From the NCBI GenBank assembly GCA_963668425.1, contig OY764332.1, positions 524,336-588,335 on the forward strand: a stretch of DNA of 64,000 nucleotides, read 5' to 3'. A program made the position numbers and the translations under genes. Origin of the DNA: Minisyncoccota bacterium. Its GTDB lineage: Bacteria > Patescibacteriota > Minisyncoccia > Phycocordibacterales > JABAAK01. This document shows, piece after piece, positions 11,747 through 55,033 of the stretch. Within the stretch, counting starts at the first letter, position 1. Each line of letters starts with the position of its first letter. Below the pieces are notes generated by a model that was given only the letters and a program-made list of their open reading frames with translations, had not been told where the DNA came from and ran no database searches.

Positions 11747-11749
11747 ATT

Positions 11750-12994: not shown

Positions 12995-13126
12995 ACGTTA
13001 GTGCAGATATTTTTAGTATACATTTGGTAGTATAGCAAACACTATTTTGGCTGTTATCATAATCCACTGCTTTGATACACTGTTGTTTTTCAAGCGGTGG
13101 AAAGGGTGTGGTATAGTGTTGATGTT

Positions 13127-13858: not shown

Positions 13859-13860
13859 TC

Positions 13861-14514: not shown

Positions 14515-14544
14515 TGTCAATCTTTGGTATACTGTTTACACTAT

Positions 14545-16398: not shown

Positions 16399-16458
16399 GG
16401 TGCGTTTGTGTGGTGCTGTTTATGGACACTATATAAAAAATGCGTTATACTTCTGAGT

Positions 16459-17439: not shown

Positions 17440-17509
17440 AGTTTTTGTGTTGTGTGAGCTGGCTGTTGAGGCAGTCAGTAAAATTATATTAAAACCCAGG
17501 AGGTTTACT

Positions 17510-17899: not shown

Positions 17900-17906
17900 T
17901 TTTACA

Positions 17907-17937
17907 CTCCGTTGCATTATGCAGCGGAGTTTTTTTA
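17907..17937 (+). terminator. rho-independent terminator
   Basis: ctccgttgca-tta-tgcagcggag (10-bp stem with one G-U) followed by ttttttt. Confidence 0.6.
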
Positions 17938-18201
17938 TGCCCTTATGTACCCGCTGTTAATTCAAAAGATTTGCCTTAGATACGGGCTTAGAGGGAGTTA
18001 TCCACTTATACAGCATACTATTCTGTATATTGGCAAAAGTGTAAAACTGGTGTTTAGGGTGTGTGTATGTTGTACATTATATATAAGTATGTCTACTTTG
18101 TGATTTTAAGATGAACACCCTGTGTTTGATCTTCGTAGAATACTGGCGAGAGAGGTAGGGAGTATTATATGTTTTTACACTTTGGCATGCTGTGATTTAG
18201 T

Positions 18202-25354: not shown

Positions 25355-25558
25355 AACCGCATGGCTCCTCCTTTCGATTACGTATTGATTGGTGCTGTTG
25401 GCAAATTCTCACGCTCGAGATCATCGCTCTCGTAGGGTTAGAAACTCCCTGATACATCAGTTGCGGCGATCATAAGTAGCGCACGCCCTCCCTAACGGGT
25501 TTGAGGCGCAGAAATACGCTACTCCGGTTAGCAAAATCCTCACTTCGGTTGGGTTTTT
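25355..25558 (+). ncRNA. candidate about 200-nt structured RNA or cis-regulatory leader (promoter-to-terminator, no ORF)
   Basis: Bounded by the promoter above and a hairpin plus T-tract at 25534-25558 (cctcac-ttcg-gttggg-ttttt); the only ORF is antisense junk; identity unassigned. Confidence 0.3.
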
Positions 25559-25567
25559 GTTGAGGTA

Positions 25568-25596
25568 TTGACAATATAATTGCGTTGTGTAATCAG
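25568..25596 (+). promoter_or_regulatory. second copy of the ttgacaatataatt promoter element
   Basis: TTGACA at 25568-25573 with TATAAT overlapping downstream; precedes the AGGAGG RBS of the gene at 25652. Confidence 0.35.
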
Positions 25597-25651
25597 TTGC
25601 CCTGATGATTAGGTTTCCAGCGGGACTTTATTTTTTATAGGAGGTGAAAGT

Positions 25652-25855
25652 ATGCTGATAGTTGTTACGCTGATAGTTGTTATAGCGGCTTTTGTTTGGA
25701 TTGTCGCTATTACAGAGTTTTTTCACAAAGTGAACATCATGGATCTTAAAAGTTTTGGGACTGTTGCAGGGTTCATTGTAGTTGGCATAATGACTGGCGT
25801 AATCTTGACGTTAATTGTGCTGGCTTTTTTGAGTGGACGAATCTTCTCAGGATGA
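25652..25855 (+). CDS. small two-TM membrane protein (67 aa)
   Basis: AGGAGG RBS; MLIVVTLIVVIAAFVWIVAI … FIVVGIMTGVILTLIVLAFL. Confidence 0.55.
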   Translation: MLIVVTLIVVIAAFVWIVAITEFFHKVNIMDLKSFGTVAGFIVVGIMTGVILTLIVLAFLSGRIFSG

Positions 25856-25993
25856 GAAGAGGTGCACAAAGTTAGATAAAATATTGGAAGAGGTAAAAAC
25901 ATGCTGATAATCGCTGTTTCTTTAGTAACTGCTGGCATTACATTTGGTGTCGCAGGTTTGATTGAAAAACTGATTGAAAGATAGGAGGTAGGT

Positions 25994-26146
25994 ATGTTGA
26001 CAATGTTTCAATCTCTGTTGCTTCTGTTCGTTGTTCTCTTTGCTCCTGTGGTGATCTCTACGGTTAGGAGCAAAAAGCAGTACAAACGTAATAAGGAACG
26101 ATTAAACGACCAAATGTATGGACGGAAACACAGAAGCCACGAGTAA
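25994..26146 (+). CDS. small single-TM membrane protein (50 aa) with basic tail
   Basis: AGGAGG RBS 5 nt upstream; MLTMFQSLLLLFVVLFAPVVIS then KKQYKRNKERLNDQMYGRKHRSHE; I prefer this over the antisense 183-aa low-complexity ORF in the track. Confidence 0.5.
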   Translation: MLTMFQSLLLLFVVLFAPVVISTVRSKKQYKRNKERLNDQMYGRKHRSHE

Positions 26147-26161
26147 AATCGTGGCTTTTTC
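26136..26161 (+). terminator. rho-independent terminator
   Basis: gccacga-gtaaaa-tcgtggc followed by tttttc. Confidence 0.6.
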
Positions 26162-26164
26162 AAA

Positions 26165-26560
26165 TAATATGGGCTTGTTGTAGTGGTGCGTGGCGGCGGT
26201 GTTTGTTGTGTGCGTGGGAGTGGTGTGGTGTGTGGAGTGGTGCTGGATGGAAGATGGAGGATTTGCATGTATTGGGATGGGGGTTGTGCGGAGGTGTGTG
26301 GGAGTGGTGAGAGGTGGTGTGTGTTGTGTGCGTGATGTGGAGCGATGTGAAAAAAGATGGAGGGTTTGCATGTATTGGGATGTGGAGGTGGTGATGGAGG
26401 TTGTGTGGGAGCGGCGAGAGGTGGTGTGTGTTGTGTGCGTGGGAGTGGTGAGAGGTGGTGTGTGGGAGTGGTGAGAGGTGTTGCGTGTTGCTCAGATGTT
26501 GTTTTGTTGTGTGGATGTGTGCACTTTGTACACAAACAGATGTATGTGTCGTGTGACATG
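26165..26560. repeat. GT-rich low-complexity repeat region with two about 105-bp tandem units containing the conserved 45-bp motif gatggagg(a/g)tttgcatgtattgggatg
   Basis: Motif copies at about 26250 and 26355; a third copy is at 39741. Confidence 0.6.
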
Positions 26561-26604
26561 TAGTAGAATACTGTTAGTTATTAATTTAAGATACTTGTGT
26601 GTGT

Positions 26605-29600
26605 ATGAATATTTCTTTGTTTCGTAGTGTTCCGCGTCTTGTTCTCTTCGGTATAGGGGTACTGCTTGCGTTGTATGTCGGTGTAACGGTTGTGTATGCA
26701 GCCACACTGGCAAGTAATACCGGTCAAACAGATGGCGGTAATCAACTTATGAACAGCACTACTGGATTGGGACAGGTGTTTACAACAGGTACTGCGCCAA
26801 GCACCCTTACGTCTGTTACCTTTGAGGTAGTTCTTGCAGCATTACAGAGTGACACTGCTCACCTTGAGGTTAGCGTACAAGGATTGAATTCTTCAGGAGA
26901 CCCGGATGGCGAAGATCTGGCATCAGTGGATTTCTTTGGTGCTACTGGTCATGACCCTATTGAGTCAACGGGAACTGTGACTGCCACCTTTGGTAATGCG
27001 CTTTCGTTGCGACCAAGTACTAGCTATGCCATTGTCTTTGACTATACTAGCACTATGCAGATCAGGGGCACCGCTGCAACTGCTGAGGACTCCTCATCTA
27101 ATGGTTGGACAATCGGAAATGTAATTCACTCTCACGATCGCTCTAGCGGTTGGTCATCAGGCACAGCTGGCGCTCTTGAGTTGGAATTTGTTGGTGATAT
27201 TGTTACTACTGCGGTATATCTTGACAGCTCCTCAGACACTGAAACAGTTACTACTGCCAATATTGCTAGCGCGAGTACTGTAGATAACCATACCAGTGAC
27301 TACACGCCAGAGCTGCAGTTGGTTGGTTTTACTTCGGGTGCTACCGTTACTGTTACGGCGACATCTGGCTCTCAAACAGATAGAGTTGTAACAAGGTCAG
27401 GTGACGGCGCGGTAACACTCCCGCCACTTGTGCCAGGGACTTGGGCGATTAGTGCTACTGATGGCACTAATACTGCCGCGACTCTTACTATAAAGATTGA
27501 GGCGTTGGCGCCTTTGCGGCTTGCGCGACCTGGTTCTGCTCAATCCAACCGTATTCATGATGGCACTTATAACGGTGTTTCCCAACCCTTTACTACAGGA
27601 TCTGATTCGTATCTTCTCACAGGCCTTTCGTATACGGTTGGGATTTTATCGCCTTCAAGCAATTCAAGTGCGACCTTTTCTGTTGCCATTCAGGGAGATG
27701 ATGGTGAGGGAAATCCTGATGGTATTCCGCTTACATATGTTGCTGTAGATCATGGTGACATTGAGTCAATAGGAGATAAGAATGTTACCTTTCCTGATGG
27801 CGGTGTTAGGTTAGCACCCTCTACGCAGTACCATGTGGTATTTCGTTACTCTTCTAACACGGCTGATCTTCGGCTTGCATTTCGGCAGATCTTTTCTCAA
27901 CCGCCGACGTCTTCTGCTGGATGGAGTTTTTCAGGTCAATCCATTGGCTACCGCGTTAGTGACAGTTCCTGGGTTGATCATCTTAACTGGAGCGGTCATT
28001 ATCTGCAGTTGGGATTTTTTGGGTTTGATACTGATGACTCTCGTGCAATTATTCTAGAATCTGCTTCAGACACAGGATCAAGTAATTCTGATGGCATAAC
28101 AAGTGACTTTACTCCTTCTGTCACAGTTTCTGGGTTTGGTGATGATGAAAGAGTAACCGTTTTGTTTGCTAATGCCGATACTACTACTTCTCCAATATCT
28201 CTGGTAGCAAATCTTGGGGATGGAGATATCTTGGGTACGCGTTCATTTGCAGAAGGGGTGTGGAAGGCGTATGCACGAACGACAGTGGGTGGTGCTATTA
28301 TTTCTACCCCTGCCACACGGATAGAGATTGACAGAACAGCCCCAGCACTCTCTGGTGCAGTTGCTATAGGTGTGACCGGTGATACTACCCCTGACTTTAC
28401 TTTTACCTCTTCTGAGGCAGGAACAATTGTAGTAGGGGGGAGCTGTGTCTCTACTGATACGGTACTGCAAGAAGGGGAAAATACTATTACCTTTACCACA
28501 GCACTTACTGCCGGTACTACCTACTCTGACTGTACTATTACACCAACAGACGTGGCAGGAAATCAAGGTACCGCTCTAACAGTTCCGTCTTTTACTGTCC
28601 TTTCGCAATTGGTTTCTAATGAAGGGGAATCTAGTTCAGACGGTAATATTATTGGAGGGAATAGTGAGTATGTAATGGCAAATAGGATTACTGTTTCAAG
28701 TACTGTCACTGCCCCTTATACCCTTGAACAGCTATTTTTCAATGTTAGCACGGCAGCACCGACAGCCACCACTGGTGATTTTACGGTTAGTGTGCAACAA
28801 GAGCATTCTAGCGAACAGCGTCCAGGCGGTACGGATCTTGCCACTGTCACTATTCCAAGTAGCGATCATGCGTACCTTGAGAGTACAGGGGTAAAGAGCG
28901 TAACCTTTTCTTCCCCCGCGATATTGCAACCAGGTGTGGACTATTGGGTGGTATTTTCCTATTCTAATACCTCTTCGGCAAGCACCTTTAGCTTAGCGCG
29001 GACTACGTCTGCCAATCAAGCAGGATTGACTGGTTGGGGCATAGGAGATGTTTGTCGTCAAACTAGTTCCACAGATTCTACTTGGACAGATTGTGCCGGT
29101 AGTTCGGTGCTAGTGGTTGGGCTGTATGGAAGAGAGATAGCACAAAGCGTTGCCCTGAAGACCAGTTCAGACACAGGGGAGAGTACCTCTGACAATATAA
29201 CAAACGACGCAACACCTACTATTGTAATTGATGGGTTTGATAGCACTCCGGCGATAACCGTTACGGCAGATCACGCTTCTGCGGCTGATGTTACTGTGAG
29301 TCGTGATGGTGACGGTGATGTTACTCTTGGGACGCTTGCAGACGGTACCTGGACGATTACCGCTAGTGCTGGGGGGAATACCTCTCCGGCATTAACCATA
29401 TATGTTGACACCACTGATCCATCTGTTTCGGCGTTAACGACAGCAACATTTTTCACAGGGCACCTTGGTAGCTCTGATACCTATATCAATAAGGCGGATA
29501 GTGACGCGAGTGCACAAGCTCTCTTTACGGCGCCTACCGGCTCTGACACCCATGGAAGCTACCGCTTCTTTTATGCGGTAGTGTCGTCAAGTACCGACTG

Positions 29601-32600
29601 TTCTACGCAGAGTATTACTGCTACTGCCATTCCTGAAACTGATGATGTGACCACTGATGGCACCTACAAGGCATGTGTTACGGTAGAGGACGTGGCGGGG
29701 AATACACAAACTCTTACTTCTCCTACCTTTACCAGAGACACCGTGGTGCCGGTGCTCTCTCAACCTTTAAGTATTGGCTCTGTTTCAAATCCTACCCCTG
29801 CCTTTACCTTCACCTCTTCTGAGGTAGGAGCAGTGACAGTTGGCGGGTCATGTAGTGCCGGTGCCGCGACTGCGACTGCATCGGCTACTACCATCACACT
29901 ATCAACGCTTTCCCCCGGTACCTACGGCAACTGTACTGTGACGGTTACCGATGTTGCAGGCAACGCGTCTGCCGCATTGTCTATTCCAAGCTTTACTATC
30001 ATCGCAGCGTCAATCACTATTAGCATGTCATCTGATCCCGCGAAACTTCGTGTTGCTATTGCGACCGTTACGGGAGATAGTCCGTCAGACCTGCTCTGGG
30101 CACTCTATGATCCGAATGCTACTCCTACTCCTACCTGTGCCGGCTCTACTAGTAATGTGGTATGGGACGCTAATCAGTCATACACCTCAGGCGCTGAGGT
30201 ATTCGTGGGTACTGTAGAAGCAGACAACGGAAAGAAGGTGTGTTTCAGGGCAACTGTCAACGGTGCTGTTATATACCAATCATCGGATGCTATTGTCGGT
30301 ATTGACAGGACTCCGCCCGTTGCGCCAACACAAACCCCTGACCTTGTTGCAGCTGGTGATACTGGGTCTTCTGACACTGACAATATTACAAACCAAACCA
30401 CCGGTCTTAGTTTTACTATTGGTGGACTTGCAGCAGAAAACGGTGGTGTCGTAACATTCTGGTCAGGGTCAACAAGTCTTGAAATTGCTCGTATTAATAA
30501 TGGTACTGCTACTGTGACTGGTGTTATACTTGCTGAAGGAGTTCATGAGATCACCGCAAGAGCCATTGATGTGGCAGCAAACACAGGACCTGCCTCTCCC
30601 GCGCTAACAGTAACAGTTGATACCACGGCACCTGCTGCCCCTGGTATTGCACTGTCTTCTGACACAGGAAGTAGTTCCAGTGACAAAAAGACCAATGATG
30701 CCACCCTCGCTATCTCTAGTATTGAGGCAGGGGCAACCTGGGAGTACAAGCTGGACACTAATGGTGACAGTGATACTGATAACGATGGTAATCCAGCGAC
30801 AAACGATGATTTGGATGGTATAAGTTTTTCTAGTGGTACTGGTACCACAATCCCAAAAACAGCATTTTCTGGCGCGACGGATGGTATACAGCGGGTACTG
30901 GCGCGTCAAACAGACGTAGCAGGAAACATCTCAGCGAGTTCAGCAGTATTTGACTTTACCTTGGACACCACAAACCCTACTATTGCTAACCCTGTACATG
31001 CCACAGTACTGGCTTCCAATGCTGGGTATCTCAACCTTGCGGGGTTTGCTGGCACCCCTCAGGATCTGGTTCTTGCAGCTGTTGCCACAGATGCCGGAGG
31101 TTCGGTGACTGTTACCTATGCGGTGGGAGCAGGATCTACTCCTGATTGTTCAGCAAACACCTTGACGTATGCATCTGCTATCCCGCAGACCGATGATGTG
31201 ACAGGGGCTGATGGAGATTACTCCGTATGTGTGAAAGGGGTTGATGTGGCGGGGAATATTCATTATGCTAAGACCTCCTTTATAAAAGACACCACCCCAC
31301 CGGCACAGATAACCGCCCTTGATCTGGTGACCGCTGAGGACACGTATGCGGATGTTAATGGTGATGGTGCCTACAATAGTTCTGTTGACTTTGGTTCAAA
31401 TACGGACAACATTACGTCAGACGATGATGTTACCTTTACCATGTCAGGGAAACAAGGATCAGGATCTCTTGTAATTACTGCGGACCCTGCGACAGCGGGC
31501 TCTATTGATAAACAGAAACGTATTACGTTATCCTCTTCAAATTCTGCTAATAGCGTGGCGCATGCGTTTGATTTTAGTGGTGATGATGACACCTATAGTG
31601 TTACAGCAGTACAGATCGACCGTGCGGGAAACCCGTCAACGCCATCAGCAGCGTTATCAGTAACCATAGATACGACTGCACCGAATCTCACTCCAACCAT
31701 TGACCTTAAAGCGAGTTCGGATACAGGAGTAAGCAACACTGACAACTATACCAACGCTGAGCAAATGGAATTTACCATTGGATCGCTTACTGAGGCAAAT
31801 CTGCGTGCTATTTTGAAAGCTGGGAGCACTGTTCTCTCTTCGCAAACTGGCGGGTTCGCGGATTATGCGACTGCAACTACTACTGATTTGACATGGGATA
31901 ACCGTACCGTTAAGAGTGAAGCCGATACCACGATTGGTGTTGTGCTCTACGACCAGGCGGGTAACAAACAAGATTTTACTAGTTCACTGACGGTGTACCC
32001 TGACTATACGGTGAGTGCGCCATTTTTCTCTAGGCATAGTTCACACGATTCAGGAGCGAGTAATTCAGATGGTATCACAAACAATCAACAGCTTGCATTT
32101 ACTCTTGCATCTGTTGAGGTAAAGACCACAAACCGAGGAAACGGTGCGCAGGTTACGGTTTACGATGACAGCTCAACCACCTCGGACCCAAGTGCCGGAT
32201 CTGCTGTTGCCTTGGCATCTGAGGTGGGGCATAGTAATGCTGACGTTACCAATAGCTCACATCTATTGACAACTAGTAAATCAGATTATGCTAACGGAAA
32301 GCACACCTTCTATGCGTGTCAGGAAGATGATGCAGGAAACAGCGCATGCTCATTGGCGGCACCATGGGTAGTTGACATTACCGCGCCAGATGCACCGGGG
32401 GCACCAGATTTACACCAAGATGATGACTCGCGAGGAGCGCATGCAAACAGCGCCCGTGACGGTACTGATGAGGATGACATTACCAACAGTACCACAGAAC
32501 TTGATTTTGCTGTGCAGGCATCAGGATCAAACGTAGAGACAAACGGGGCACATGACCAGCACCAGATACGCTTTTACCTGTGGACTAAGGCAGACGCAGC

Positions 32601-35600
32601 GGACACTTCGGTTGGGGATAGTGAACTCACCGAGCTCAAATCAGTTGCTGTAGATGCCGCATCTAACATACAAACCATTAGTGATGCTGGCTATGTTGCC
32701 AATGGAGAGCGTGGAGCAACAAAGCAGCTCTACACCTCAACAGATACTGCCCTTACCGATGGTTTCCACTACTTTGTCGCCAAGCAGTATGATGTGGCAG
32801 GTAACCTCTCGGCAGTATCAGACGCATTGCGTATATTTGTTGACACACAAGCACCGGACTCTATTACCGTTGACCCAACCCTGCACCCAACCAGTGACTC
32901 TGGAACATCAGACAATGACAAGCAAACCTCATCAGTAGATCTGCTTTTCACTTTTAATCCAACACCAATGTCAGGAGACATTGACTACTTTGAGGTACGA
33001 AGAAAGCGACTCAATAGCGATTTGTCCTCTGCGGAAACCACCTTTACCTACCCGTCAGACGCAGACACCGTAGAGCAGACATCGTATGAGTTCCTTGCAA
33101 AAAACGCAGCCCAAAGCGCTCTTGTCGCAGAGGCAGGGAACACCTACGCAGACGGTGCTTACGCATCTGGTGGTGCCGTGAAGATCTCCGCCATGGATAT
33201 CTCACACTTTAACACCTGGTATGCCTTCAGCATCTATGCCGTTGACATCGCCGGAAACGTGCGACAAGGTTCTAACTCTACCAACGTGCGTATTTTAGTA
33301 CCACCACCAACTCCTACCAAGATGGACCTGTCAGCTACCAAGGACTCAGGAGCACTAGACACAGACAACACTACCAATGAAACCTCTTGGACACTATCTG
33401 GTAGCTATCAGAACACCTCACAAGCAGAGCAAGACAATGACGCAGCAGCCGGCGTAAAAAGAATTGTCGTTAGTGTTAGTAAGCTTGACAGTCAGAATCA
33501 AGCAACAGAAACCCTCACCCACACCTTTACCACAGACACTGACCAAAACTTAACCAACGACATTGCTGTGCCATCTAATGCAAATGATCCCTACACCTAC
33601 ACCTACACCTTTGACGCCACCACCTTCACCACTCTAGAGGACGGTGCTTACCTTGTCACCGCAGCAGCTTACAACAGTGCAGGAGAAACAGGAGGACAGT
33701 CAGCTTCACTGACCATCACCCTTGATAGAGTCGCACCAACACCAGAGGAGCACATCACCCTACGTACCAAGTCCTTTACCGGATCAACCAACCAAGAATA
33801 TATCTTCTCCTACGCAAACCCATCAAACAACGAGCCAAACGCATCAATTGTTCTGGCAGACGCAGACGGTGCTACTGTCAGGACCCTTGACAGCACAAAC
33901 CCTACCTACACCCACACAACCGCCAATGCTATCACCGAATACACCGCAACGTACATTGATGCAGCAGGAAACAGTTCAGAAGCAGTTACCCTCCTTGCCG
34001 TATCACTCCCCCCAACCCTCACCTCGTATACCACCGCGACAAACAGCTACATCGTTATCGCCGCACCCCAGCAAGGAGCAACTATCGCCACAACCACACA
34101 GTACAACGCACAGTCATCCAACCTCTGTGATCCAACTGGATCACGCATTAGTGCGGCAACCTTTGCAACAAATGAAATCAAGACATCAGTAACCACGGAC
34201 TACTGTGTAGAAGCAGTGGACTCAGCAGGGAACGTCAGAACTATTAGAATTAAAGCAGACGCAAACGATCTCATCGCAAACGCTGCAGTACATGACGAAG
34301 ATGATGCAGGAAGCAGTCAGCATGACAACAAGACAAATATCCCAAACCCACGATACACCGCAACCACCCTACCAGGTTCAACGGTACGCATGCAGTCAAG
34401 AATACAAGCATCTCCAGCAAACACTTGGACAGACATACACACCGTTACCGCAGACGCAGACACCGGTATGTTTACCATCCAAACTATTCTTCCTGACCCG
34501 GTAACCGCTGATGCTGTTGTAGAGCTTCAGGGCTTTGTCAGTAACGCAACACTCGGCACCTCTGCGATTGGTCCTATTACCCTTTCTCCTGTTACCCTTG
34601 ACGTGACCGCACCTCAGGCACCCAGCGCCCCTGCCCTTGCAGCAGGAGACGACACGGGGTCAGTGAACAGTGATGCTGTTACCAGCACCACCACTAACCT
34701 CACCTTTGCCTACACCGGTCTTTCAGCGGAGAATGGAGGGTTTGTGAGAATGTATGCAGGTTCAACCCTCTTAGGTGCAACTGTTATCGCATCTGGCAGC
34801 GCCTCTGTTTCCATTACCCTCGCAGAAGGTGTCCACACCCTTGTCGCAAAGCTCATTGACGAGGCAGGGAATGAAGGACCCGCATCACCACCCCTTACCG
34901 TGACGATAGACACTACCGATCCAGCTATCACTATCATCCGACTCAATGATGAGGACACCACCATTGATGTAAACACCAGATTCATCGCAGTAGCAGCAGA
35001 TCAGACATCTCTCATCTTCAAGGTAGCTGAGGAGACCAAGGCATCCTGTACCGCACGCACCATAGATGCAAACACCGCATACACATCAGGAGCTCTGTAT
35101 GACCCGAGTGACTCTTCAACAAATGGCTACTGTTTCGTTGTCACCGACCTAGCAGGCAACAGAGCAACTATGCACACCGATGACGCTATTGAAGGAGTCG
35201 GCTCCTTTGCTATCCAAGGAGGCACAGACGAATCAGGAACACTCTACACCACCTCAGGTACCAAGACCATCACCGGTGTTACTGCACCAGAGGCACAGGT
35301 ACTCATCAAGCTGGCAGACGCAACAGATGACCCCTCAACGTACACCACCAGTAACCTGCAGGACACCTCATTTGCAACCATCTCCTTTGCTATACCAACC
35401 GGCGAGACAACCTTTGAGCAACCCCTCAGTATTGGATCAGGTGACACCGGCAAGAAGGTGGTCGGATGGATATGGACGGATGCAGCTGATGCAACCACTG
35501 CAACCCCAGCAATCACCCTCGGTACCTTGACGGTAGACGACACTGCACCAACTATTACCGCAGGAGTCATCGCATCAAGCAACGCAAACCCCGCCTTTGC

Positions 35601-37440
35601 AAAGCAAGGAGACACTATCACCGCATCCTTTACTACCTCAGAAGCAATCATCGCAGAGACCACCACTATCAACGGCATCCCCGCATCCTGTTCTGACACC
35701 AACAACACCTTCTCCTGTGCTGCAACCCTTACCAACGTAGCGACTGAAGGACCTGCAACGGTTGTAATAGCGGTCACTGACAAAGCAGGGAATACCACGA
35801 ACAGAACTATCACCAACCCCGACATCACCGTAGATGCTATGGCACCAGCAGTAACCATCACCAACCTCAGAACAAAACACCTCGCCACAACTGGCACTCA
35901 AACCTTTACCCTCACTATTACCGATACCAACCAAATCAACCCCGGTACCTACGTCTTCACCGCAACCGGAGCAACCCTTTCAACCTGTCAGATTGTTGTA
36001 CCGGCAACCAGCAACAACGAACAAACAACCTGTACCATCACCACCTCTTCGGCTACAGACGGCACCGCTGTGTCACTGACCGTACCAACCCTCACTGATG
36101 CCTCAGGAAACACCAAAGTATCTCACCAGACAACCCTCGGCTACGTAGACACCCAAGCACCAACCATCACCTCAATCACCTCATTTGACGACTCACGAAC
36201 AAAGAAGTTTTCCTTTACCGTAGCTGTAACCCACAACCAACACACAAGCAACACCAACCCAGAAACCCTCACCGCAGTATTTTCAGGAGATTGCAGTAGA
36301 TTTGAAGCAGAGACAGATACCTGGACCGGTACCACCACCGGCACCTACACCACTACCTTCTCCGCACCAAAAGGTACATACAAAACCTGTACTCTCGCTC
36401 TCAGAGATGAAGCAGGTAACACCTCAGCAACCCAGACCTTTGACCAGTTCACTGTCAAAGGTGGAGGAGGGATAGGGCGTATCGGAGACGTTGCCCGCAA
36501 TGCTATCTCCTCCCTCTTTGATGTGTTTGATGGAGCTGAGCAGCCAACCCCAACCCCAATTGTCCCACCAACAACACCTGTCTTTGACATCGGACAACCG
36601 GGACAACAAGAGCAAACGGCTGCGTTTATTGAAGAGGCAACCTCCTTCACCAGAGACCTCACCATTGGCTCAATCGGAGAAGATGTCAGAGCACTCCAGA
36701 AGATGCTCAACACCCTCGGCTTCATCGTGTCTACAACCGGAGCAGGATCTCCAGGAGCAGAGAGTACTTACTTTGGCGAGAAGACCAGACAAGCCCTCAT
36801 TCGTTATCAAGAGGCAAACAGTATTACTCCAGCATTCGGTTACTTTGGACCACGTACCAGAGCGCATATACAAGGACAAGGACAACTTCAGCCAACAGCA
36901 CCAGTAGAAGAGGTTAGATCATTTGTTGATACAGCGACAGAAGAAGAGCAACAACCAGCACCAACAGTGTCTACTGTAGCTGAAGAGGCACCCTTTGCCG
37001 GCTTTACCAGAGACCTCACTATCGGCTCAGTCGGAGCAGATGTCAGAGCACTCCAAAGCATGCTCAACACCCTTGGCTTTATCGTGTCTACAACTGGAGC
37101 AGGATCTCCAGGAGCAGAGAGTGTCTACTTTGGCGAGAAGACCAGACAAGCCCTTATCCGTTACCAAGAGGCAAACAGTATCACCCCGGCATTAGGTTAC
37201 TTTGGACCACGTACCAGAGCGCAGGTACAAAGGAAGCAACCAGTAGAAGAAGTTAGATCATCTATTGAAACGGCAGAACAAGAGGAAGAGGAGCGACGAG
37301 AACAACAGCCGTCTCCTGAACAACAGCAACAAGCACAGCCGACACAAGAGCAAGAAGGGGATGTCACGGACTATGAACCAATCACTAACCCACTATTCCG
37401 TGTGCGTACACTGCCTTCCCATGGAGCACCAAGTTTTTAG
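26605..37440 (+). CDS. giant surface protein 1 (3611 aa): N-terminal anchor, three copies of a non-Ig about 150-aa module, Ig-like tandem repeats, two C-terminal peptidoglycan-binding domains
   Basis: ATG at 26605 (the track start at 26599 is GTG). The hydrophobic N-terminus is RLVLFGIGVLLALYVGVTVVYAA. More than 30 repeats end in …(V/I)D(T/R)TAP and carry SSDTGSSNSDGITSDFTPSVTVSG-type bacterial Ig-like motifs. Two PG_binding_1-like repeats follow (FTRDLTIGSIGEDVRALQKMLNTLGF…GYFGPRTRA), and the protein ends LFRVRTLPSHGAPSF. Confidence 0.85.
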   Translation: MNISLFRSVPRLVLFGIGVLLALYVGVTVVYAATLASNTGQTDGGNQLMNSTTGLGQVFTTGTAPSTLTSVTFEVVLAALQSDTAHLEVSVQGLNSSGDPDGEDLASVDFFGATGHDPIESTGTVTATFGNALSLRPSTSYAIVFDYTSTMQIRGTAATAEDSSSNGWTIGNVIHSHDRSSGWSSGTAGALELEFVGDIVTTAVYLDSSSDTETVTTANIASASTVDNHTSDYTPELQLVGFTSGATVTVTATSGSQTDRVVTRSGDGAVTLPPLVPGTWAISATDGTNTAATLTIKIEALAPLRLARPGSAQSNRIHDGTYNGVSQPFTTGSDSYLLTGLSYTVGILSPSSNSSATFSVAIQGDDGEGNPDGIPLTYVAVDHGDIESIGDKNVTFPDGGVRLAPSTQYHVVFRYSSNTADLRLAFRQIFSQPPTSSAGWSFSGQSIGYRVSDSSWVDHLNWSGHYLQLGFFGFDTDDSRAIILESASDTGSSNSDGITSDFTPSVTVSGFGDDERVTVLFANADTTTSPISLVANLGDGDILGTRSFAEGVWKAYARTTVGGAIISTPATRIEIDRTAPALSGAVAIGVTGDTTPDFTFTSSEAGTIVVGGSCVSTDTVLQEGENTITFTTALTAGTTYSDCTITPTDVAGNQGTALTVPSFTVLSQLVSNEGESSSDGNIIGGNSEYVMANRITVSSTVTAPYTLEQLFFNVSTAAPTATTGDFTVSVQQEHSSEQRPGGTDLATVTIPSSDHAYLESTGVKSVTFSSPAILQPGVDYWVVFSYSNTSSASTFSLARTTSANQAGLTGWGIGDVCRQTSSTDSTWTDCAGSSVLVVGLYGREIAQSVALKTSSDTGESTSDNITNDATPTIVIDGFDSTPAITVTADHASAADVTVSRDGDGDVTLGTLADGTWTITASAGGNTSPALTIYVDTTDPSVSALTTATFFTGHLGSSDTYINKADSDASAQALFTAPTGSDTHGSYRFFYAVVSSSTDCSTQSITATAIPETDDVTTDGTYKACVTVEDVAGNTQTLTSPTFTRDTVVPVLSQPLSIGSVSNPTPAFTFTSSEVGAVTVGGSCSAGAATATASATTITLSTLSPGTYGNCTVTVTDVAGNASAALSIPSFTIIAASITISMSSDPAKLRVAIATVTGDSPSDLLWALYDPNATPTPTCAGSTSNVVWDANQSYTSGAEVFVGTVEADNGKKVCFRATVNGAVIYQSSDAIVGIDRTPPVAPTQTPDLVAAGDTGSSDTDNITNQTTGLSFTIGGLAAENGGVVTFWSGSTSLEIARINNGTATVTGVILAEGVHEITARAIDVAANTGPASPALTVTVDTTAPAAPGIALSSDTGSSSSDKKTNDATLAISSIEAGATWEYKLDTNGDSDTDNDGNPATNDDLDGISFSSGTGTTIPKTAFSGATDGIQRVLARQTDVAGNISASSAVFDFTLDTTNPTIANPVHATVLASNAGYLNLAGFAGTPQDLVLAAVATDAGGSVTVTYAVGAGSTPDCSANTLTYASAIPQTDDVTGADGDYSVCVKGVDVAGNIHYAKTSFIKDTTPPAQITALDLVTAEDTYADVNGDGAYNSSVDFGSNTDNITSDDDVTFTMSGKQGSGSLVITADPATAGSIDKQKRITLSSSNSANSVAHAFDFSGDDDTYSVTAVQIDRAGNPSTPSAALSVTIDTTAPNLTPTIDLKASSDTGVSNTDNYTNAEQMEFTIGSLTEANLRAILKAGSTVLSSQTGGFADYATATTTDLTWDNRTVKSEADTTIGVVLYDQAGNKQDFTSSLTVYPDYTVSAPFFSRHSSHDSGASNSDGITNNQQLAFTLASVEVKTTNRGNGAQVTVYDDSSTTSDPSAGSAVALASEVGHSNADVTNSSHLLTTSKSDYANGKHTFYACQEDDAGNSACSLAAPWVVDITAPDAPGAPDLHQDDDSRGAHANSARDGTDEDDITNSTTELDFAVQASGSNVETNGAHDQHQIRFYLWTKADAADTSVGDSELTELKSVAVDAASNIQTISDAGYVANGERGATKQLYTSTDTALTDGFHYFVAKQYDVAGNLSAVSDALRIFVDTQAPDSITVDPTLHPTSDSGTSDNDKQTSSVDLLFTFNPTPMSGDIDYFEVRRKRLNSDLSSAETTFTYPSDADTVEQTSYEFLAKNAAQSALVAEAGNTYADGAYASGGAVKISAMDISHFNTWYAFSIYAVDIAGNVRQGSNSTNVRILVPPPTPTKMDLSATKDSGALDTDNTTNETSWTLSGSYQNTSQAEQDNDAAAGVKRIVVSVSKLDSQNQATETLTHTFTTDTDQNLTNDIAVPSNANDPYTYTYTFDATTFTTLEDGAYLVTAAAYNSAGETGGQSASLTITLDRVAPTPEEHITLRTKSFTGSTNQEYIFSYANPSNNEPNASIVLADADGATVRTLDSTNPTYTHTTANAITEYTATYIDAAGNSSEAVTLLAVSLPPTLTSYTTATNSYIVIAAPQQGATIATTTQYNAQSSNLCDPTGSRISAATFATNEIKTSVTTDYCVEAVDSAGNVRTIRIKADANDLIANAAVHDEDDAGSSQHDNKTNIPNPRYTATTLPGSTVRMQSRIQASPANTWTDIHTVTADADTGMFTIQTILPDPVTADAVVELQGFVSNATLGTSAIGPITLSPVTLDVTAPQAPSAPALAAGDDTGSVNSDAVTSTTTNLTFAYTGLSAENGGFVRMYAGSTLLGATVIASGSASVSITLAEGVHTLVAKLIDEAGNEGPASPPLTVTIDTTDPAITIIRLNDEDTTIDVNTRFIAVAADQTSLIFKVAEETKASCTARTIDANTAYTSGALYDPSDSSTNGYCFVVTDLAGNRATMHTDDAIEGVGSFAIQGGTDESGTLYTTSGTKTITGVTAPEAQVLIKLADATDDPSTYTTSNLQDTSFATISFAIPTGETTFEQPLSIGSGDTGKKVVGWIWTDAADATTATPAITLGTLTVDDTAPTITAGVIASSNANPAFAKQGDTITASFTTSEAIIAETTTINGIPASCSDTNNTFSCAATLTNVATEGPATVVIAVTDKAGNTTNRTITNPDITVDAMAPAVTITNLRTKHLATTGTQTFTLTITDTNQINPGTYVFTATGATLSTCQIVVPATSNNEQTTCTITTSSATDGTAVSLTVPTLTDASGNTKVSHQTTLGYVDTQAPTITSITSFDDSRTKKFSFTVAVTHNQHTSNTNPETLTAVFSGDCSRFEAETDTWTGTTTGTYTTTFSAPKGTYKTCTLALRDEAGNTSATQTFDQFTVKGGGGIGRIGDVARNAISSLFDVFDGAEQPTPTPIVPPTTPVFDIGQPGQQEQTAAFIEEATSFTRDLTIGSIGEDVRALQKMLNTLGFIVSTTGAGSPGAESTYFGEKTRQALIRYQEANSITPAFGYFGPRTRAHIQGQGQLQPTAPVEEVRSFVDTATEEEQQPAPTVSTVAEEAPFAGFTRDLTIGSVGADVRALQSMLNTLGFIVSTTGAGSPGAESVYFGEKTRQALIRYQEANSITPALGYFGPRTRAQVQRKQPVEEVRSSIETAEQEEEERREQQPSPEQQQQAQPTQEQEGDVTDYEPITNPLFRVRTLPSHGAPSF
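32383..37440. repeat. about 5-kb segmental duplication, copy in giant gene 1 (near-identical to 49069-54579)
   Basis: Long runs of nucleotide identity; the identical 156-aa and 94/139-aa out-of-frame ORFs in the track at 33722/50396 and 32654/49328 are by-products of the duplication. Confidence 0.8.
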
Positions 37441-37461
37441 TCACTGAACGCTCTTAGATAT

Positions 37462-37831
37462 ATGACAACCACTATAACAGAGCCATATAGAAAGGGACAA
37501 ATAACCACACCCATCAGCAAACCCTTTCTTGACGAAGCCATTGAGCCGTCAGAGAGTAAGCGTATGAGGTGTGCTAAAGGTGCCTCTTTTGCATCTCAGA
37601 TACTAAGAGGAGATGTTGTTGACGCAGTTAACAAAAAGACTAATCCAATCTTGTATACATGGAAATAATGGGAGAGCTTTAATACCTTTTGCGGGTTCAG
37701 GTTCAGAATGTGTCGTGGCAGAATCTCTTGGCATAGGATATGTAGGTATAGAAATAAATCCTGAATATGTTGAATATGCTGAAAAATGGTTACTTTCATA
37801 CAAAAGGCGACTATCCCTTGACACCGCGTGA
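37462..37831 (+). pseudogene. DNA methyltransferase C-terminal fragment (frameshifted remnant)
   Basis: Two overlapping frames; the second encodes ALIPFAGSGSECVVAESLGIGYVGIEINPEYVEYAEKW, which is the motif I (DPFxGSGTT-like) and GIE…PEY C-terminal region of beta-class N4/N6 MTases, with no N-terminal catalytic half. Confidence 0.5.
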
Positions 37832-37899
37832 TAACGCAGGGTGCAAAACTGGTGCTGTGGCGTGGAAAACAATTGTACAATGTATACAAAGACCAATGT

Positions 37900-38703
37900 A
37901 TGCCTTCTCCAAACTTCAAGCCAAATACGCTTTTCAATGAAAATTGTGTTGAGACTATGTCTCGCATTGATGACTGCAGTGTAGACATGATATTAACATC
38001 ACCTCCGTATGATGATATGCGGGAATATGATGGAAACACTTTTACAGAGTTTGAAACAATAGCCAAAGAGGTATACAGGATAGTAAAGGTTGGTGGTGTT
38101 GTTGTATGGGTCATATCTGACCAAACAAAAAACGGAGATGAGACCGGAACATCTTTTAAGCACGCACTGTATTTCAAGGAAACAGGATTTAAACTTTTTG
38201 ATACAATGATTTACTTAAAGCCACCAAGAGGAGCATGTGGCAGTAATAAAACCTATTGGCAATCTTTTGAATACATGTTTGTATTCAGCAAGGGTTCCCC
38301 AAAAACAATCAATCTCCTAATGGACAGAGAGAACAAGGATGAGCGTACTGGCGATACAGGCACAAAAAGAATGTTTAATGGAACAAGGAAAAAGATAAAA
38401 AGGGGCGGCTATGGCAGGCTAGGCAGAAGAACAAATGTTTGGGAATACAAGGTCGGAAGAGGGCATTCGTCAAAAGATGACATTGCATACGAGCATCCTG
38501 CAATTTTCCCAGAAAAGCTTGCAGAAGACCACATACTTTCATGGAGCAATGAATGCGACTTAATCTATGATCCTTTTATGGGCAGCGGCACAACCGCAAA
38601 GATGTCTATCTTAAATGGTAGAAGATTTATAGGAAGTGATATGTCTCAAAAGTATTGTGCGATAGCGAAAAAAAGGATAACAATGTATGAAAAAAAGGTG
38701 TAG
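37900..38703 (+). CDS. beta-class DNA methyltransferase (N4-cytosine or N6-adenine; SPPY motif)
   Basis: Motif IV TSPPY precedes motif I DPFMGSGTT (beta arrangement); the N-terminus LFNENCVETMSRIDDCSVDMILTSPPY matches the typical MTase lead-in; start at ATG 37900 (the track start is GTG 37828). Confidence 0.8.
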   Translation: MPSPNFKPNTLFNENCVETMSRIDDCSVDMILTSPPYDDMREYDGNTFTEFETIAKEVYRIVKVGGVVVWVISDQTKNGDETGTSFKHALYFKETGFKLFDTMIYLKPPRGACGSNKTYWQSFEYMFVFSKGSPKTINLLMDRENKDERTGDTGTKRMFNGTRKKIKRGGYGRLGRRTNVWEYKVGRGHSSKDDIAYEHPAIFPEKLAEDHILSWSNECDLIYDPFMGSGTTAKMSILNGRRFIGSDMSQKYCAIAKKRITMYEKKV

Positions 38704-39067
38704 GGAGTGTAAAAAGTCAAAAAATGAAGAGCATTTTGCAAGAAATCAGTTTGGCAAAAATAACCGTGTGCTTCGCAGACCTGTGTGCAAGGAGTGCTAT
38801 GGCAAAAAAATAAAAATAAAACCGAGAGAAAGAAAGAAGTTTGAGAGAAAAAATCCAAAACCAAGCATAGGCGATTGCTTTGAATGCCCAATATGTCAAC
38901 AGTGTTTTGAAAGACAGCACCGTAATGATGTGGTGCTTGACCACAATGATATTACTGGTGAAATACGTGGGTGGCTTTGTAACAGTTGTAACACAAGTTT
39001 GGGCAAATTCAAAGACAGTGTTATTATACTTAAACGTGCAATACGGTGGATAAAAGGTACACTTTAA
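38687..39067 (+). CDS. endonuclease VII-family (HNH-like) nuclease with N-terminal Zn ribbon
   Basis: VLDHNDITGEIRGWLCNSCNTSLG matches the T4 endoVII core HLDHDH…VRGLLCNLCN…G; N-terminal CRECKK…CKECYG and CFECPICQQC CxxC pairs; overlaps the MTase stop by 17 nt. Confidence 0.75.
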   Translation: MKKRCRECKKSKNEEHFARNQFGKNNRVLRRPVCKECYGKKIKIKPRERKKFERKNPKPSIGDCFECPICQQCFERQHRNDVVLDHNDITGEIRGWLCNSCNTSLGKFKDSVIILKRAIRWIKGTL

Positions 39068-39224
39068 AGGTGTGAGCAAAAAAGCATTTCTAAAACTTTT
39101 GAACAAAACCCTTACACCCGTGAAAGTAACACCTGAAACAAAGGCATAGAAGAAAGACAGTGGTTGTAACGAAAAGCAGACTCATCAACGTACCTCTGTA
39201 GGTACTTCCGAGAAACAAAGTGGT

Positions 39225-39330
39225 GTGTCGGTGTGTTGTGATTTTTTTTGTTTTTTTTGTTGGGTGGTGTGTCGGTGTGTTGTGATTTTTTTGTTTTTTT
39301 TTTTGGGGTGGGTGGTGTGTAAAAGCGTGG
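39225..39330. repeat. tandem duplication of a GT-rich about 48-bp unit
   Basis: gtggtgtgtcggtgtgttgtgattttttt(t)gtttttttt occurs twice in a row. Confidence 0.6.
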
Positions 39331-39367
39331 TTTGCGGTGGTTATGGTGGTGTTATACTGTTTTTGTT

Positions 39368-39643
39368 ATGGGTTTTGATACTTCAATTATTATCTATACC
39401 GCTCTTCCGGGTATGGTCGGTGGGTTGGTGCGGGGATTGATTGGGATTTCTAAACATGTGGTGCGGGATAAGGAGCCGTTTCATCTTCCCAAGTTGTTGT
39501 TTTCGTTGTTGTTGGCAGTGCTTGTCGGGAGTGTGGCAGGTGCACTGACTGAGGGGGATTGGCGGGTGGCGTTGCTTGCTGGTTTTGCCGGGACTGATGT
39601 GTTGGAGTCATTGTGTAAGACGCGTTTGTTAAAGTCCTCATAG
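39368..39643 (+). CDS. small two-TM membrane protein (91 aa), function unknown
   Basis: MGFDTSIIIYTALPGMVGGLVRGLIGI … LLFSLLLAVLVGSVAGALT; no RBS; low confidence. Confidence 0.3.
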   Translation: MGFDTSIIIYTALPGMVGGLVRGLIGISKHVVRDKEPFHLPKLLFSLLLAVLVGSVAGALTEGDWRVALLAGFAGTDVLESLCKTRLLKSS

Positions 39644-39723
39644 GTGTTGAGAGAGGGCGCGATGAGATGGCGCTTGTTGCGGGTGTGTGGCATGGTTGGT
39701 TGTGGTGAAGGGAGGTGATGTAG

Positions 39724-39781
39724 TGCGATGTGAAAAAAAAGATGGAGGGTTTGCATGTATTGGGATGGTGAGTGGTATGGG
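39724..39781. repeat. third copy of conserved 45-bp motif gcgatgtgaaaaaaaagatggagggtttgcatgtattgggatg
   Basis: Same motif as at about 26250 and 26355, again about 150-250 bp upstream of a giant-gene start. Confidence 0.6.
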
Positions 39782-39912
39782 ACGAAGTAAACGGTTATTA
39801 CAAAAATAATGTGTGAACAGTTTTACACATGGCAAACCATACTAAAGAAAAGAATAGAGATATACTATACATTAAGTGAGTAAGTAAAGAGCTCTAATAT
39901 TATCAGATATAT

Positions 39913-42900
39913 ATGATACGTACTATAGCAGTGCCACATACAAAAGGTAAAGGTCTTGCAAAATATATACTCCTCAACGGAGTCCTTCTTTTTATACTTC
40001 TCCTTTCAACCGTCTCAGCGCAAGCAGTAGTATTGGTGAGTAACTTTGGGCAAACTGCAGAACCTACTGGTGGTATTGAATTAACAGGTAGTGCCTACTT
40101 TCATCAAGAGTTTACTACGCCTGCTGGTAGTGATAGCTATACTCTTACTAGTGTTGAACTAAATGTAGTACAAGCAGCTTCAGCTGATCAAGTGAACAAA
40201 ACAGTAATCGTTCATATGTATGAGGTTGATACAACAAATACAGGTAACGATACTCGTCTCGCTACAGTAACCTCTTCACCCGGATTTTTTGATAGCGTCG
40301 GAGATAAGACGTTTGATTTTTCGGATAGTGATGTAACGTTAGCACCTAATACCACCTACGCTGTAAGATTGAGAGGTTCTGGTTATTTGACAGATCCCTT
40401 TAGTGCCGGTGGTATTGTTCCTCATATTAGAAGGCATTCAGACACAGATGAAGATGCTGGAGGTCTCGCAGGTTGGACTATAGCAAATAATGTTTTTTTT
40501 GTAAACTTAGATACCACAAGCACCAGTGCCATACTATCTATGCGCTTAAATGGTGAATTACAACAAGAAGAAGGCATTTCACTTTTATCCTCTTCAGACT
40601 CAGGTTCTTCTGACACCGACAACATCACCAATGACAATACTCCAGAACTCCTTCTTGCAGGATTTACTGATGGTGCAACAGTAACAGTAACCGCAGATCA
40701 TGCTACTGCAGCTGATGTAACTGCTAGTCGTACAGGTGACGGAAGTGTCACTCTGGCAACACTCGCTGACGGTGAATGGGCACTATCAGCAACAGATACA
40801 ACAAACATACACACCCTTACTATTACTGTAGACACTAGTGCTCCCACCGCCATCACTAGTGTCAGCTCTATACCAACCGGATCCGATACCACTCCTGACC
40901 TATCCTTCACCGCACCAGAAGCAGGGACCTTGGTAGCAAATAGTGCGTGTGGTATCACTGCAGAGGCAGTTACATCTGGATCAAACACCATCACGCTGAC
41001 TGCACTTGCTCCTGCCATCTACGCCTCCTGTACCATTCAGATGGCTGATGTAGCAGGAAATAATTCGCCAACAGCAAACATTCCTTCCTTTACGATCACA
41101 GGACCAACAATTGATCTTAAATCCACTTCAGACACAGGAACTTCTGACACCGACAACATCACCAGGGACAATACGCCAACCTTCACTGTCTCAGGACTTA
41201 GTGGAACAGTAACAGTAACTGCAGATCACGCTACTGAAGCTGATGTAACTAACACAAGATCTGGTAATGGAGACGTTACCCTAGGAGCACTTGCCGATGG
41301 CGTGTGGTCAGTATCAGCAAGCGATGGAACCACTACCACCCCTTCCATTAGCGTTACTATAGACCTTGTGGGTCCTGCTAGTCTCATCACCGGTGTCAGC
41401 TCTATAGGGACTACATCGGATACCACTCCTGACTTAACCTTCACTACACCAGAAGCAGGAACCTTAGTAGCAAATACTGCGTGTGGTATCACTGCACAAG
41501 CAGTCATAGCTGGAGAAAACACCATCACGCTAACTGCACTTGCTCCTGGAACCTACGGCTCTTGTACCATTGAGATGACTGATATAGCAGGAAACTATGC
41601 AATCCCAGCAACAAGTATTCCTTCTTTTACAATCACAGGACCAGCCGTTGATCTTAAAGCAAGCTCAGATTCAGGAAGTTCTGACACCGACAACATTACC
41701 AACGACAATACGCCAACCTTCACTGTCTTAGGTCTTGATAATAGTGCAACAGTAACAGTAACTGCAGATCATGCTACTTTAACTGATGTAACTGCTACAA
41801 GATCTGGTAATGGAGACGTTACCTTAGGAACACTTGCCGATGGCGTGTGGTCAGTATCAGCATCAGATGGAACCACTACCACCTCTTCTATCAGTGTTAC
41901 CATAAACTATTCTGGTGCTCCTGGCAGGATTGCTAGCATTAGTGCTATAGGGACAACATCGGATACCACTCCTGACCTAACCTTTACTACAGTAGAGGCA
42001 GGAACCTTAGTAGCAAATACTGCGTGTGGTATCACTGCACAAGCAGTCATACTTGGAGAAAATACCATCACCCTTACTGAACTTACTAATGGCACCTACA
42101 GCACCTGTCAAATCACGATGACTAATGTAGCAGGAAACGCTTCAGTACCAGCAAACATTCCTTCCTTTACCATTACAGGACCATCAATTGACCTTAAAGC
42201 AGGCTCAGACTCAGGTTCTTCAAACACCGACAACCTTACCAACGACAATACGCCAACCTTCACCGTTTCAGGACTTAGTGGAACAGTAACAGTAACCGCA
42301 GATCATGCTACTTTAACTGATGTAACTGCTACAAGAACTGGTAATGGAGACGTTACCCTAGGAACACTTGCTGATGGCGTGTGGTCAGTATCAGCAAGCG
42401 ATGGAACAACTACCACCCCTTCTATCAGTGTTACTATAGACACTTTGGGTCCTGCTACTTTTACTAGCAGTATCAGCTCTATTGGTACTACAGCAGATAC
42501 CACTCCTGACCTTACCTTTACTTCATCAGAAGCAGGAATAGTGCAATCAAATACTGCGTGTGGTATCACTGCACAAGAAGTTACATCTGGATCAAACACT
42601 ATCACGCTTACAGAACTTGCTCCTGGCACCTATAGCACTTGTGTTATTTGGATGATAGATCTAGCAGGAAATCCTTCATCAAATACACCCATCCCCTCCT
42701 TTACAATCATAGTACCAGCAGTTGATCTTAAGGCAAGCTCAGATTCAGGAAGTTCTGACACCGACAACATTACCAACGACAACACACCAACCTTCACTGT
42801 TTCAGGCCTTGATAATAGTGCGCAGGTGAGGGTAGGTGCATCTCAGTCTGGTGAAACTAATGTAACTGCCTCAAGAACTGGTAATGGAGATGTTACGCTC

Positions 42901-55014: not shown

Positions 55015-55033
55015 TGTATGGTACTATGATGTT

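Follow-up and report, generated by a model that had tools for sequence, protein, structure and literature searches.

The left side of the window, a stretch of 64,000 nucleotides (nt) of contig OY764332.1, holds housekeeping genes (a tRNA, L10, L7/L12, HtrA, a short alanyl-tRNA synthetase (AlaRS), GAPDH and ion channels). To the right of these follow three very long open reading frames (ORFs), g1, g2 and g3, which lie in tandem and all on the + strand. The AlaRS shares 83% identity with that of a 'Candidatus Kaiserbacteria' metagenome-assembled genome (MAG) and 49-59% with those of many Saccharibacteria and Paceibacterota MAGs, which places the organism among the Patescibacteria (candidate phyla radiation, CPR); its type is that of the Kaiserbacteria/Paceibacteria. 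g1, g2 and g3 are paralogues in tandem, and the giant proteins that they encode are predicted to sit on the cell surface. At their 3' ends the three genes have a 5-kb module in common, which has very probably been kept near-identical by concerted evolution, that is, by repeated gene conversion, while the 5' parts diverged.

Three giant genes with a common 3' module

According to the ORF list and Pfam, g1 (26599-37440) encodes 3,613 amino acids (aa) with a signal peptide, two copies of a head domain, Big_13 repeats and two C-terminal PG_binding_1 domains. The product of g2 (39913-54579; 4,888 aa) has a signal peptide, one head domain, 17 Big_13 matches and three PG_binding_1 domains. g3 begins with the ATG at 56364 and is still open at the window end (at least 2,545 aa); its orthologue g3' in a sister strain measures 4,383 aa. 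Big_13 (PF19077) scored 280.8 bits over nine stretches in g1 and 713.9 bits over 17 stretches in g2, and PG_binding_1 (PF01471) 72.8 bits over two domains and 113.6 bits over three domains, respectively. Both proteins thus combine PF19077 and PF01471 above the gathering score and count as Big_13/PG_binding_1 surface proteins.

A signal-peptide-like sequence opens all three genes. Those of g2 and g3 are identical at 37 of 38 positions, and the segment of 5' leader and signal peptide that these two genes have in common (39782-40025 in g2, 56220-56476 in g3, both on the + strand) shows 86% nucleotide identity. Behind the signal peptide lies an unnamed head domain of ~170 aa, which according to the alignment has two copies in g1 and a single copy in each of the other two genes, and which is marked by the motifs Q-x-F-T-T-G, L-x-P-x-T-x-Y and G-W. 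It had no sequence match in Pfam, NCBIfam or PDB, and only three partial homologues were found. Judged from a modest structure model (pLDDT 62), it may be a beta-sandwich similar to PHR domains, to carbohydrate-binding modules or to the receptor-binding modules of phages. The distal parts have diverged widely. The N-terminal 500 aa of g1 are 33% identical to g2 (BLASTP), the heads of g2 and g3 are 41% identical, and the g1-specific 5' part (26599-32370, + strand) has no nucleotide match to g2 or g3 in a self-blastn. In g2 an array of diverged Big_13 units occupies 40546-46621 (+ strand; units 61-84% identical, spacings 534/834 nt, families D1-D3), which blastn identifies as paralogous to g3 57291-60108.

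The region 26001-64000 was compared with itself by blastn. g1 32371-37352 matched g2 49057-53996 with 95.4% identity over 5,001 columns (151 mismatches, 13 gaps, 7,992 bits), and g1 32371-33866 matched g3 62517-64000 with 95.2%. Past the indel in the PG-binding repeats the match between g1 and g2 resumes (36981-37454 versus 54114-54593, 87.7%). This similarity is far beyond chance, and no further copy of the block was found in window positions 1-26000. The module thus occupies 32371-37454 in g1 (1,689 aa), 49057-54593 in g2 and 62517-64000 in g3, where it is cut by the window end; all copies are on the + strand. It encodes a degenerate immunoglobulin (Ig)-like stalk and a peptidoglycan (PG)-binding anchor. 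The anchor comprises two PG_binding_1 repeats in g1 (36589-37245; Pfam, repeat family D4 and protein alignment) and three in g2 (53245-54378; repeat search, Pfam and protein alignment), and the additional repeat of g2 measures ~500 nt.

At its left edge the block begins abruptly: identity rises from ~40% to ~95% inside one 100-nt window at 32371/49057. This edge lies exactly on the inter-domain motif VD(I/R)TAPDAPGAPDL, at aa 1925 of g1, 3049 of g2 and 2052 of g3 (Ig-domain junction VDITAPDAPGAPDL in the first copy), and the right edge lies 14 nt beyond both stop codons. An in-frame insertion of 12 nt at 32527-32538 (+ strand; SGSNVETNGAHDQ versus SGTSGAHDQ) is peculiar to g1, as it is missing from g2, g3 and the sister-strain g2' in a four-way alignment. 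A sequence-only reading of the window had described a near-identical 5-kb block, this indel and the difference in the number of PG-binding repeats. The block, the indel and the repeat counts were all recovered, and the start of the block was moved from 32383/49069 to 32371/49057. The same reading let the g3 copy begin at 62100. It is indeed shared, but g1-like sequence starts only at 62517, and 62105 is the start of the near-identity between g2 and g3.

In the shared module the ratio of non-synonymous to synonymous substitution rates (dN/dS) is 0.15-0.19, as against 0.49-0.57 in the g2/g3 segment upstream of it, a comparison that the sequence-only reading had proposed. The module is therefore the constrained, purifying-selected part of the genes, and it is homogenised at synonymous sites too, so constraint alone does not explain its similarity. 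Uniform identity over the whole gene length, as left by a simple duplication, is excluded by the contrast between N-terminal regions with 33-41% protein identity and a 3' block with 95-100% nucleotide identity. At third codon positions the GC content (GC3) of the giant genes was 0.30-0.37 in their variable parts and 0.46-0.47 in the shared module; the housekeeping genes had 0.40-0.47. GC-biased gene conversion was considered and dropped, because the GC3 of the module equals that of the housekeeping genes and because a second tandem pair (contig L002, described below) showed no difference, with 0.25 in both parts.

Patchwork identity, a sister strain and a second lineage

The identity between g1 and g2 is not even along the block. 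Windows of 100 nt range from 91 to 100%, which makes the 'near-identical' blocks real but a patchwork. At 33157-34391 (g2 49831-51065, + strand) g1 and g2 are identical over 1,235 nt, and outside this tract they differ at 86 sites in 4,174 ungapped columns. The tract spans 30 consecutive polymorphic sites, and a run of this kind was reached in 0 of 20,000 permutations (P<5e-5). Within it ~30 sites separate g2' of the sister strain from both g1 and g2, and g3, as far as the window reaches, departs from them at 19. These features mark it as a recent conversion tract.

The closest pair also changes along the sequence. Left of 33156 the informative sites group g2 with g3 in 39 cases and g1 with g2 in two, with g1 as the odd one out; right of 33315 they group g1 with g2 in 19 cases and g2 with g3 in none, with g3 as the odd one out. 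The breakpoint, at which g2 passes from g3-like to g1-like, lies in the interval 33156-33315 (g2 49830-49989, g3 63290-63449, + strand; Fisher P=1e-13). Therefore g2 is a chimera, g3-like up to ~49830 and then g1-like to 51065. Clustered identity and a change of the closest relative along the sequence are what discrete tracts of gene conversion leave behind.

Exchange extends beyond the 3' block into the segment upstream of it. g2 45413-50540 is collinear with g3 58897-64000 (88.2% over 5,162 columns, self-blastn), and the part of g2 before the module (45413-49056, + strand, versus g3 58897-62516) is a mosaic with 47-100% sliding identity per 100 nt. Its best-conserved patch is g2 46557-47600, with 93-96% identity to g3. 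The 'separate 1-kb block' that had been reported at 46567-47600 and 60061-61100 is therefore real (92-96%), but it is not separate, being a patch of this collinear 5.1-kb homology. At 45563-45712 and 46748-46897, g2 and g3 of the same genome are 94-95% identical, as compared with 87-88% for g3 and g3'. Near-identity of g2 and g3 (96-100%) begins at 48645/62105. Just before it lies an island of ~300 nt (48354-48645 versus 61835-62105) in which g2 and g3 share only 54-62%, flanked by segments of 97% and 98-100%. The orthologues g2 and g2' are 99-100% identical there, which makes the island gene-specific and seemingly resistant to conversion.

The sister strain serves as a control. It was reached through a protein that is 93% identical to the module (P0001) and is represented by contig L001 (ENA ERZ21861969 ctg18633l), the one sister strain found; it comes from another sample, and its contig ends inside g2'. 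L001 matches window positions 47969-58651 with 96.3% identity over 10.7 kb and has the same order of g2', a winged helix-turn-helix (wHTH) gene and g3'. The synonymous divergence (dS) in the shared block was 0.054 for g1 and g2 within the genome, 0.076 for g2 and g2' between the strains and 0.086 for g1 and g2'; for the single-copy wHTH gene it was 0.046 between the strains. In the shared block, paralogues within one genome are thus closer to each other than orthologues of two strains, the hallmark of concerted evolution. The last exchange therefore took place after the strains split, and at least one conversion event post-dates the separation of two strains that differ by ~4%. At 33231-34383, g1 equals g2 and g2' is different at every polymorphic site, with g3 siding with g2' at eight of them. 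This suggests, without proving it, that g1-type sequence overwrote g2 in the source strain.

Between the strains, dS along g3 and g3' varies from 0 to 0.37, and the dN/dS of 58644-59817 is above 1. g3' carries ~1.9 kb of extra Big_13 units (L001 10700-12125 versus window ~58129-58651), which are only ~80% identical to any unit in the window. In g2' the 2-nt insertion TA at L001 ~622 (window ~48590), outside a homopolymer, causes a frameshift that splits the gene into two ORFs (3-626 and 1157-6643). It sits at the 3' end of the diverged g2/g3 island and could be a pseudogenisation, an off state or a sequencing error.

Homologues beyond the two strains were considered as well. Four distant proteins (P0002, P0003, P0005 and P0006) cover 88-96% of the module at 31-39% identity, and the C-terminal stretch of ~1,700 aa is thus an evolutionary unit within the family. 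Two of them, P0003 and P0005, are encoded by adjacent genes on a contig of 432.8 kb (L002), the module of which shares 34-36% protein identity with that of the window. These tandem genes (1429-9795 and 10001-18298) are 98.4% identical over 6,078 nt (3679-9746 versus 12194-18270), and their 5' parts cannot be aligned. Identity in their shared block is patchy, complete over tracts of 1.6 and 2.8 kb and 82-98% in other patches, and the block begins at the homologous junction DT(T/I)PPTAPSIPDL. The same pattern of homogenisation recurs, therefore, in an independent lineage. Contigs L084 and L085 are single-copy and lack such repeats, and L091 has a different architecture. Copy number thus varies between one, two, and three or more, and tandem copies always have the same module homogenised. 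A further contig (L083; ENA ERZ26167708 ctg191118_2x_c), 'circular', 21,053 nt long and of 2x coverage, contains family genes only and a 9-kb self-repeat at 97.7%. It is probably a low-coverage assembly artefact, or else a tandem duplication or an excised circle of a family gene. No close relatives of the module were found in GTDB species genomes, nor in JGI metagenomes with a single protein query; profile A1 gave only five weak generic Big_13 matches in the latter.

Concerted evolution as the probable explanation, its rivals and known systems

The tract without differences, the switch of the closest pair, the greater similarity of paralogues than of orthologues and the recurrence in L002 bear out the exchange of segments between the paralogues that had been read from the sequence. 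In the mechanism that would account for them, repeated, patchy and non-reciprocal homologous recombination between the direct-repeat copies homogenises the 5-kb 3' module. Conversion tracts would end at or downstream of the conserved Ig-domain junction, and therefore the 5' parts would be free to diverge and to change their repeat number. The order of parts in each protein is a Sec-type signal peptide, a divergent distal part (the head and a variable number of Big_13 units) and the conserved C-terminal module of ~1,700 aa, of which the stalk and the two to three PG_binding_1 repeats presumably hold the protein non-covalently on the cell wall. We infer that the exchange depends on RecA, that the proteins lie on the cell surface and are anchored there by their PG-binding repeats, and that the heads bind a ligand or a host; the exchange may also have adaptive value.

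Several points weigh against this account. The three 5-kb repeats are known from the assembly alone, and neither recA nor any other recombination gene is present in the window. The sister-strain orthologue of g1 was not found, so that a four-taxon test of g1, g2, g1' and g2' lacks one member; because of this, the direction of each event is only suggested. Homologous recombination between strains also contributes and could explain part of the strain-level pattern. Finally, the surface location and the function of the proteins are predicted only from their domains.

The sequence-only reading had gone further and proposed programmed antigenic or phase variation, in which multi-kb cassettes are shuffled at high frequency to alter the exposed surface. 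The mosaic central segment of g2 and g3 fits this proposal, as do the strain differences in g3 (dN/dS above 1 at 58644-59817 and a repeat number that differs by ~1.9 kb), the 2-nt frameshift in g2' and the nature of the products as surface proteins of a probable episymbiont. The layout of an expression site with silent cassettes is, however, not what is found. The ORFs of g1 and g2 are complete, that of g3 begins with a start codon and a signal peptide, silent, truncated or promoterless donors are absent from the locus, and the 5' leader is even common to g2 and g3. The ORFs that were scanned include no recombinase, invertase or reverse transcriptase, and the intergenic regions (25400-26700, 37400-40000 and 54500-56450) contain no inverted repeats of at least 14 nt. 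With regard to an invertible promoter or simple-repeat phase variation, a recombinase domain was not detected and only runs of T8-T11 occur, ~620 nt upstream of g2; the frameshift of g2' lies outside a simple-sequence tract. A diversity-generating retroelement finds no reverse-transcriptase domain in the ORFs scanned either, and the differences between the copies are not adenine-specific. Moreover, the DNA that is homogenised most strongly codes for the conserved stalk and anchor rather than for a variable epitope region. Since neither the enzymes, the inverted repeats nor truncated or promoterless cassettes were found, programmed variation is not supported by anything beyond the mosaicism itself, and we regard it as improbable.

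Still less probable is an artefact of assembly or consensus, by which reads of co-existing strains or of the paralogues were mixed into false tracts and mosaics. Such an artefact is conceivable in a metagenome-derived genome, the more so as a 96%-identical strain is present in another sample, the sister-strain contig ends inside g2', and the related 2x-coverage contig L083 looks artefactual. The ORFs are, however, uninterrupted (3,613 codons in g1, 4,888 in g2, at least 2,545 open in g3), and the same layout was assembled independently in L001 and, from a different organism and sample, in L002. Contig names of the type ctg...l and ctg...c appear to be the linear and circular labels of a long-read assembler, and such reads would span a 5-kb repeat. 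In addition, copy-specific variants flank the identical tract on both sides within read length. A single recent segmental duplication of the 3' end onto three genes, followed by divergence under purifying selection with no exchange, is the least credible explanation, for although the block is collinear, ends together with the gene and has a low dN/dS (0.15-0.19), it is already contradicted by 1,235 identical nt beside flanks at dS ~0.05-0.1 (synonymous sites being unprotected by purifying selection), by the change of the closest pair within the block (P=1e-13) and by a dS that is lower for g1 and g2 (0.054) than for g2 and g2' (0.076).

Concerted evolution by gene conversion has its closest described analogue in the bab and hom families of Helicobacter pylori. 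In these outer-membrane adhesin paralogues, babA/babB (and babC) and homA/homB, the 3' segments show intrastrain similarity, which has been attributed to concerted evolution, while orthology or divergence prevails in the 5' and middle parts; chimeric genes arise by intragenomic gene conversion that most likely depends on RecA (PMC3960876). g1-g3 likewise have a 3' block in which paralogues are closer than orthologues, and g2 combines g3-like with g1-like sequence as a chimera. In H. pylori the conserved part is an outer-membrane domain, whereas here it is an Ig-like stalk of 5-6 kb with a PG-binding anchor. The conserved segment of bab and hom is far shorter than 5 kb. The bab loci are dispersed, unlike the tandem g1-g3, and their expression also switches through dinucleotide repeats, none of which was seen at g1-g3; the host of g1-g3 is, moreover, an uncultured CPR bacterium. 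Cassette antigenic variation by segmental gene conversion is known from Neisseria pilE/pilS, Borrelia vlsE, Mycoplasma genitalium mgpB/MgPar, Anaplasma msp2 and Treponema tprK. In these systems a single expressed gene receives sequence from partial donors that lack a promoter, and the transfer runs one way, at high frequency, into hypervariable regions. They resemble the present locus in that homologous recombination between repeated surface-protein sequences gives mosaic genes. They differ from it in that g1 and g2 are complete, g3 starts like a complete gene, and it is the conserved region that is homogenised.

The yeast FLO and Hil/ALS adhesins have been described as repeat-rich surface paralogues in which ectopic recombination leads to chimeric alleles and changes of repeat number (PMC3512402, 10.1101/2022.02.09.479577). 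g1-g3 are alike in being repeat-rich cell-surface paralogues that recombine. The yeast families are eukaryotic, often subtelomeric and anchored by GPI or in the cell wall, and unlike g1-g3 they have no kb-scale homogenised anchor module. Giant Ig-repeat surface proteins are described in the abstracts on Acinetobacter BAP, which is highly polymorphic between strains, Salmonella SiiE, which is exported by a type I secretion system, and a Mobiluncus adhesin of 7,651 aa (PMC4647330, PMC6272769, PMC10619420); these abstracts describe no tandem paralogues with a shared 5-kb block. g1-g3 likewise code for Ig-like modules in very long arrays at the cell surface, but their C-terminal PG_binding_1 anchor sets them apart from these adhesins. 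Giant Ig-repeat adhesins are usually single-copy, and others among them are anchored by cell-wall sorting. Exceptionally long genes have also been reported from Omnitrophota, uncultured bacteria that are ultra-small or predatory, with a proposed role in contact with other cells (10.1101/2023.11.21.568195). g1-g3 share the exceptional length and the small-celled uncultured host, but phylum and domain content are different, and that preprint mentions neither recombination, paralogues, Big_13 nor peptidoglycan binding. A literature search found no paper that links Patescibacteria with gene conversion of surface proteins.

As a process, this is well established for the adhesin gene families of other bacteria, and the mechanism is textbook; therefore the advance is one of scope, not of principle. 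The way of life of CPR/Patescibacteria is one of attachment to other cells. Their giant surface proteins rank among the foremost candidates for contact with the host, but little has been documented on how the genes concerned evolve. Here kb-scale gene conversion is active in a genome of probably ~0.7 Mb, with a sister strain as control, and it homogenises the anchor while the distal parts evolve freely. Loci of this type will break or be mis-assembled in short-read MAGs, and comparisons of such genes between strains by orthology will mislead. A rather unlikely extension is that the stalk-and-anchor module (5-6 kb, with its boundary at the conserved junction) is maintained as a recombination platform for the re-assortment of heads among tandem genes and strains. 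If this were true, CPR episymbionts would exchange, duplicate, delete and re-assort host-binding heads, and these organisms with minimal genomes would have a modular route to new host or surface specificity. The pattern recurs in at least two lineages, the modules of which are only ~35% identical at the protein level.

Neighbouring genes and other elements of the window

Between g1 and g2 lies an island (37828-39643) with an N6/N4 DNA methylase, an Endonuclease VII (HNH-type) ORF of 126 aa (38687-39067; Pfam 56 bits) and a small membrane ORF of 103 aa (39332-39643). The methylase has a 100% match (P0072), the next best being only 73% identical, and the methylase of the sister strain was not found; because of this the island may be strain-specific. 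From the 696,550-nt contig listed for P0072, and solely from this, the host genome is probably ~0.7 Mb in size. A gene for a wHTH/phosphoribosyltransferase-like protein of 342 aa occupies 54977-56005 between g2 and g3. Nothing ties this gene, the methylase, the Endonuclease VII ORF or the membrane ORF to the exchange.

The tRNA on the left side is the only Rfam match in the window. The AlaRS (14524-16398) is just 624 aa long and has its end directly behind the tRNA_SAD domain, so that the customary C-terminal part is missing; the matched relatives in other Patescibacteria align over an equal length. The ORF at 17399-17899 matches Pfam PF20704 'NucS shadow ORF' (64.8 bits), and because of this it may be a spurious frame over a real nucS-like gene on another frame or strand. 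Two ORFs on the - strand, 26008-26559 and 37596-38177, are probably not genes, because both lack a family match, and the first overlaps a G/T-rich repeat region, the second the methylase gene.

Scans of the window for promoters and terminators scored no more than about background level and were disregarded. The 64 kb contain three exact copies of a 27-nt motif, GATGGAGGRTTTGCATGTATTGGGATG (0 expected), at 26253-26279, 26356-26382 and 39741-39767. Two of them, 220-350 nt upstream of g1, fall inside a tandem repeat (107 nt x1.8), the third lies 146 nt upstream of g2, and there is no copy upstream of g3. It is possible that this motif serves the giant genes as a common regulatory element. Just 3' of the g2 stop codon, at 54712-55015, a tandem repeat of 105 nt is present in 2.9 copies with 99% identity. 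It overlaps the annotated start of the wHTH/phosphoribosyltransferase-like ORF, and each unit carries the same weak sigma-70-like match.

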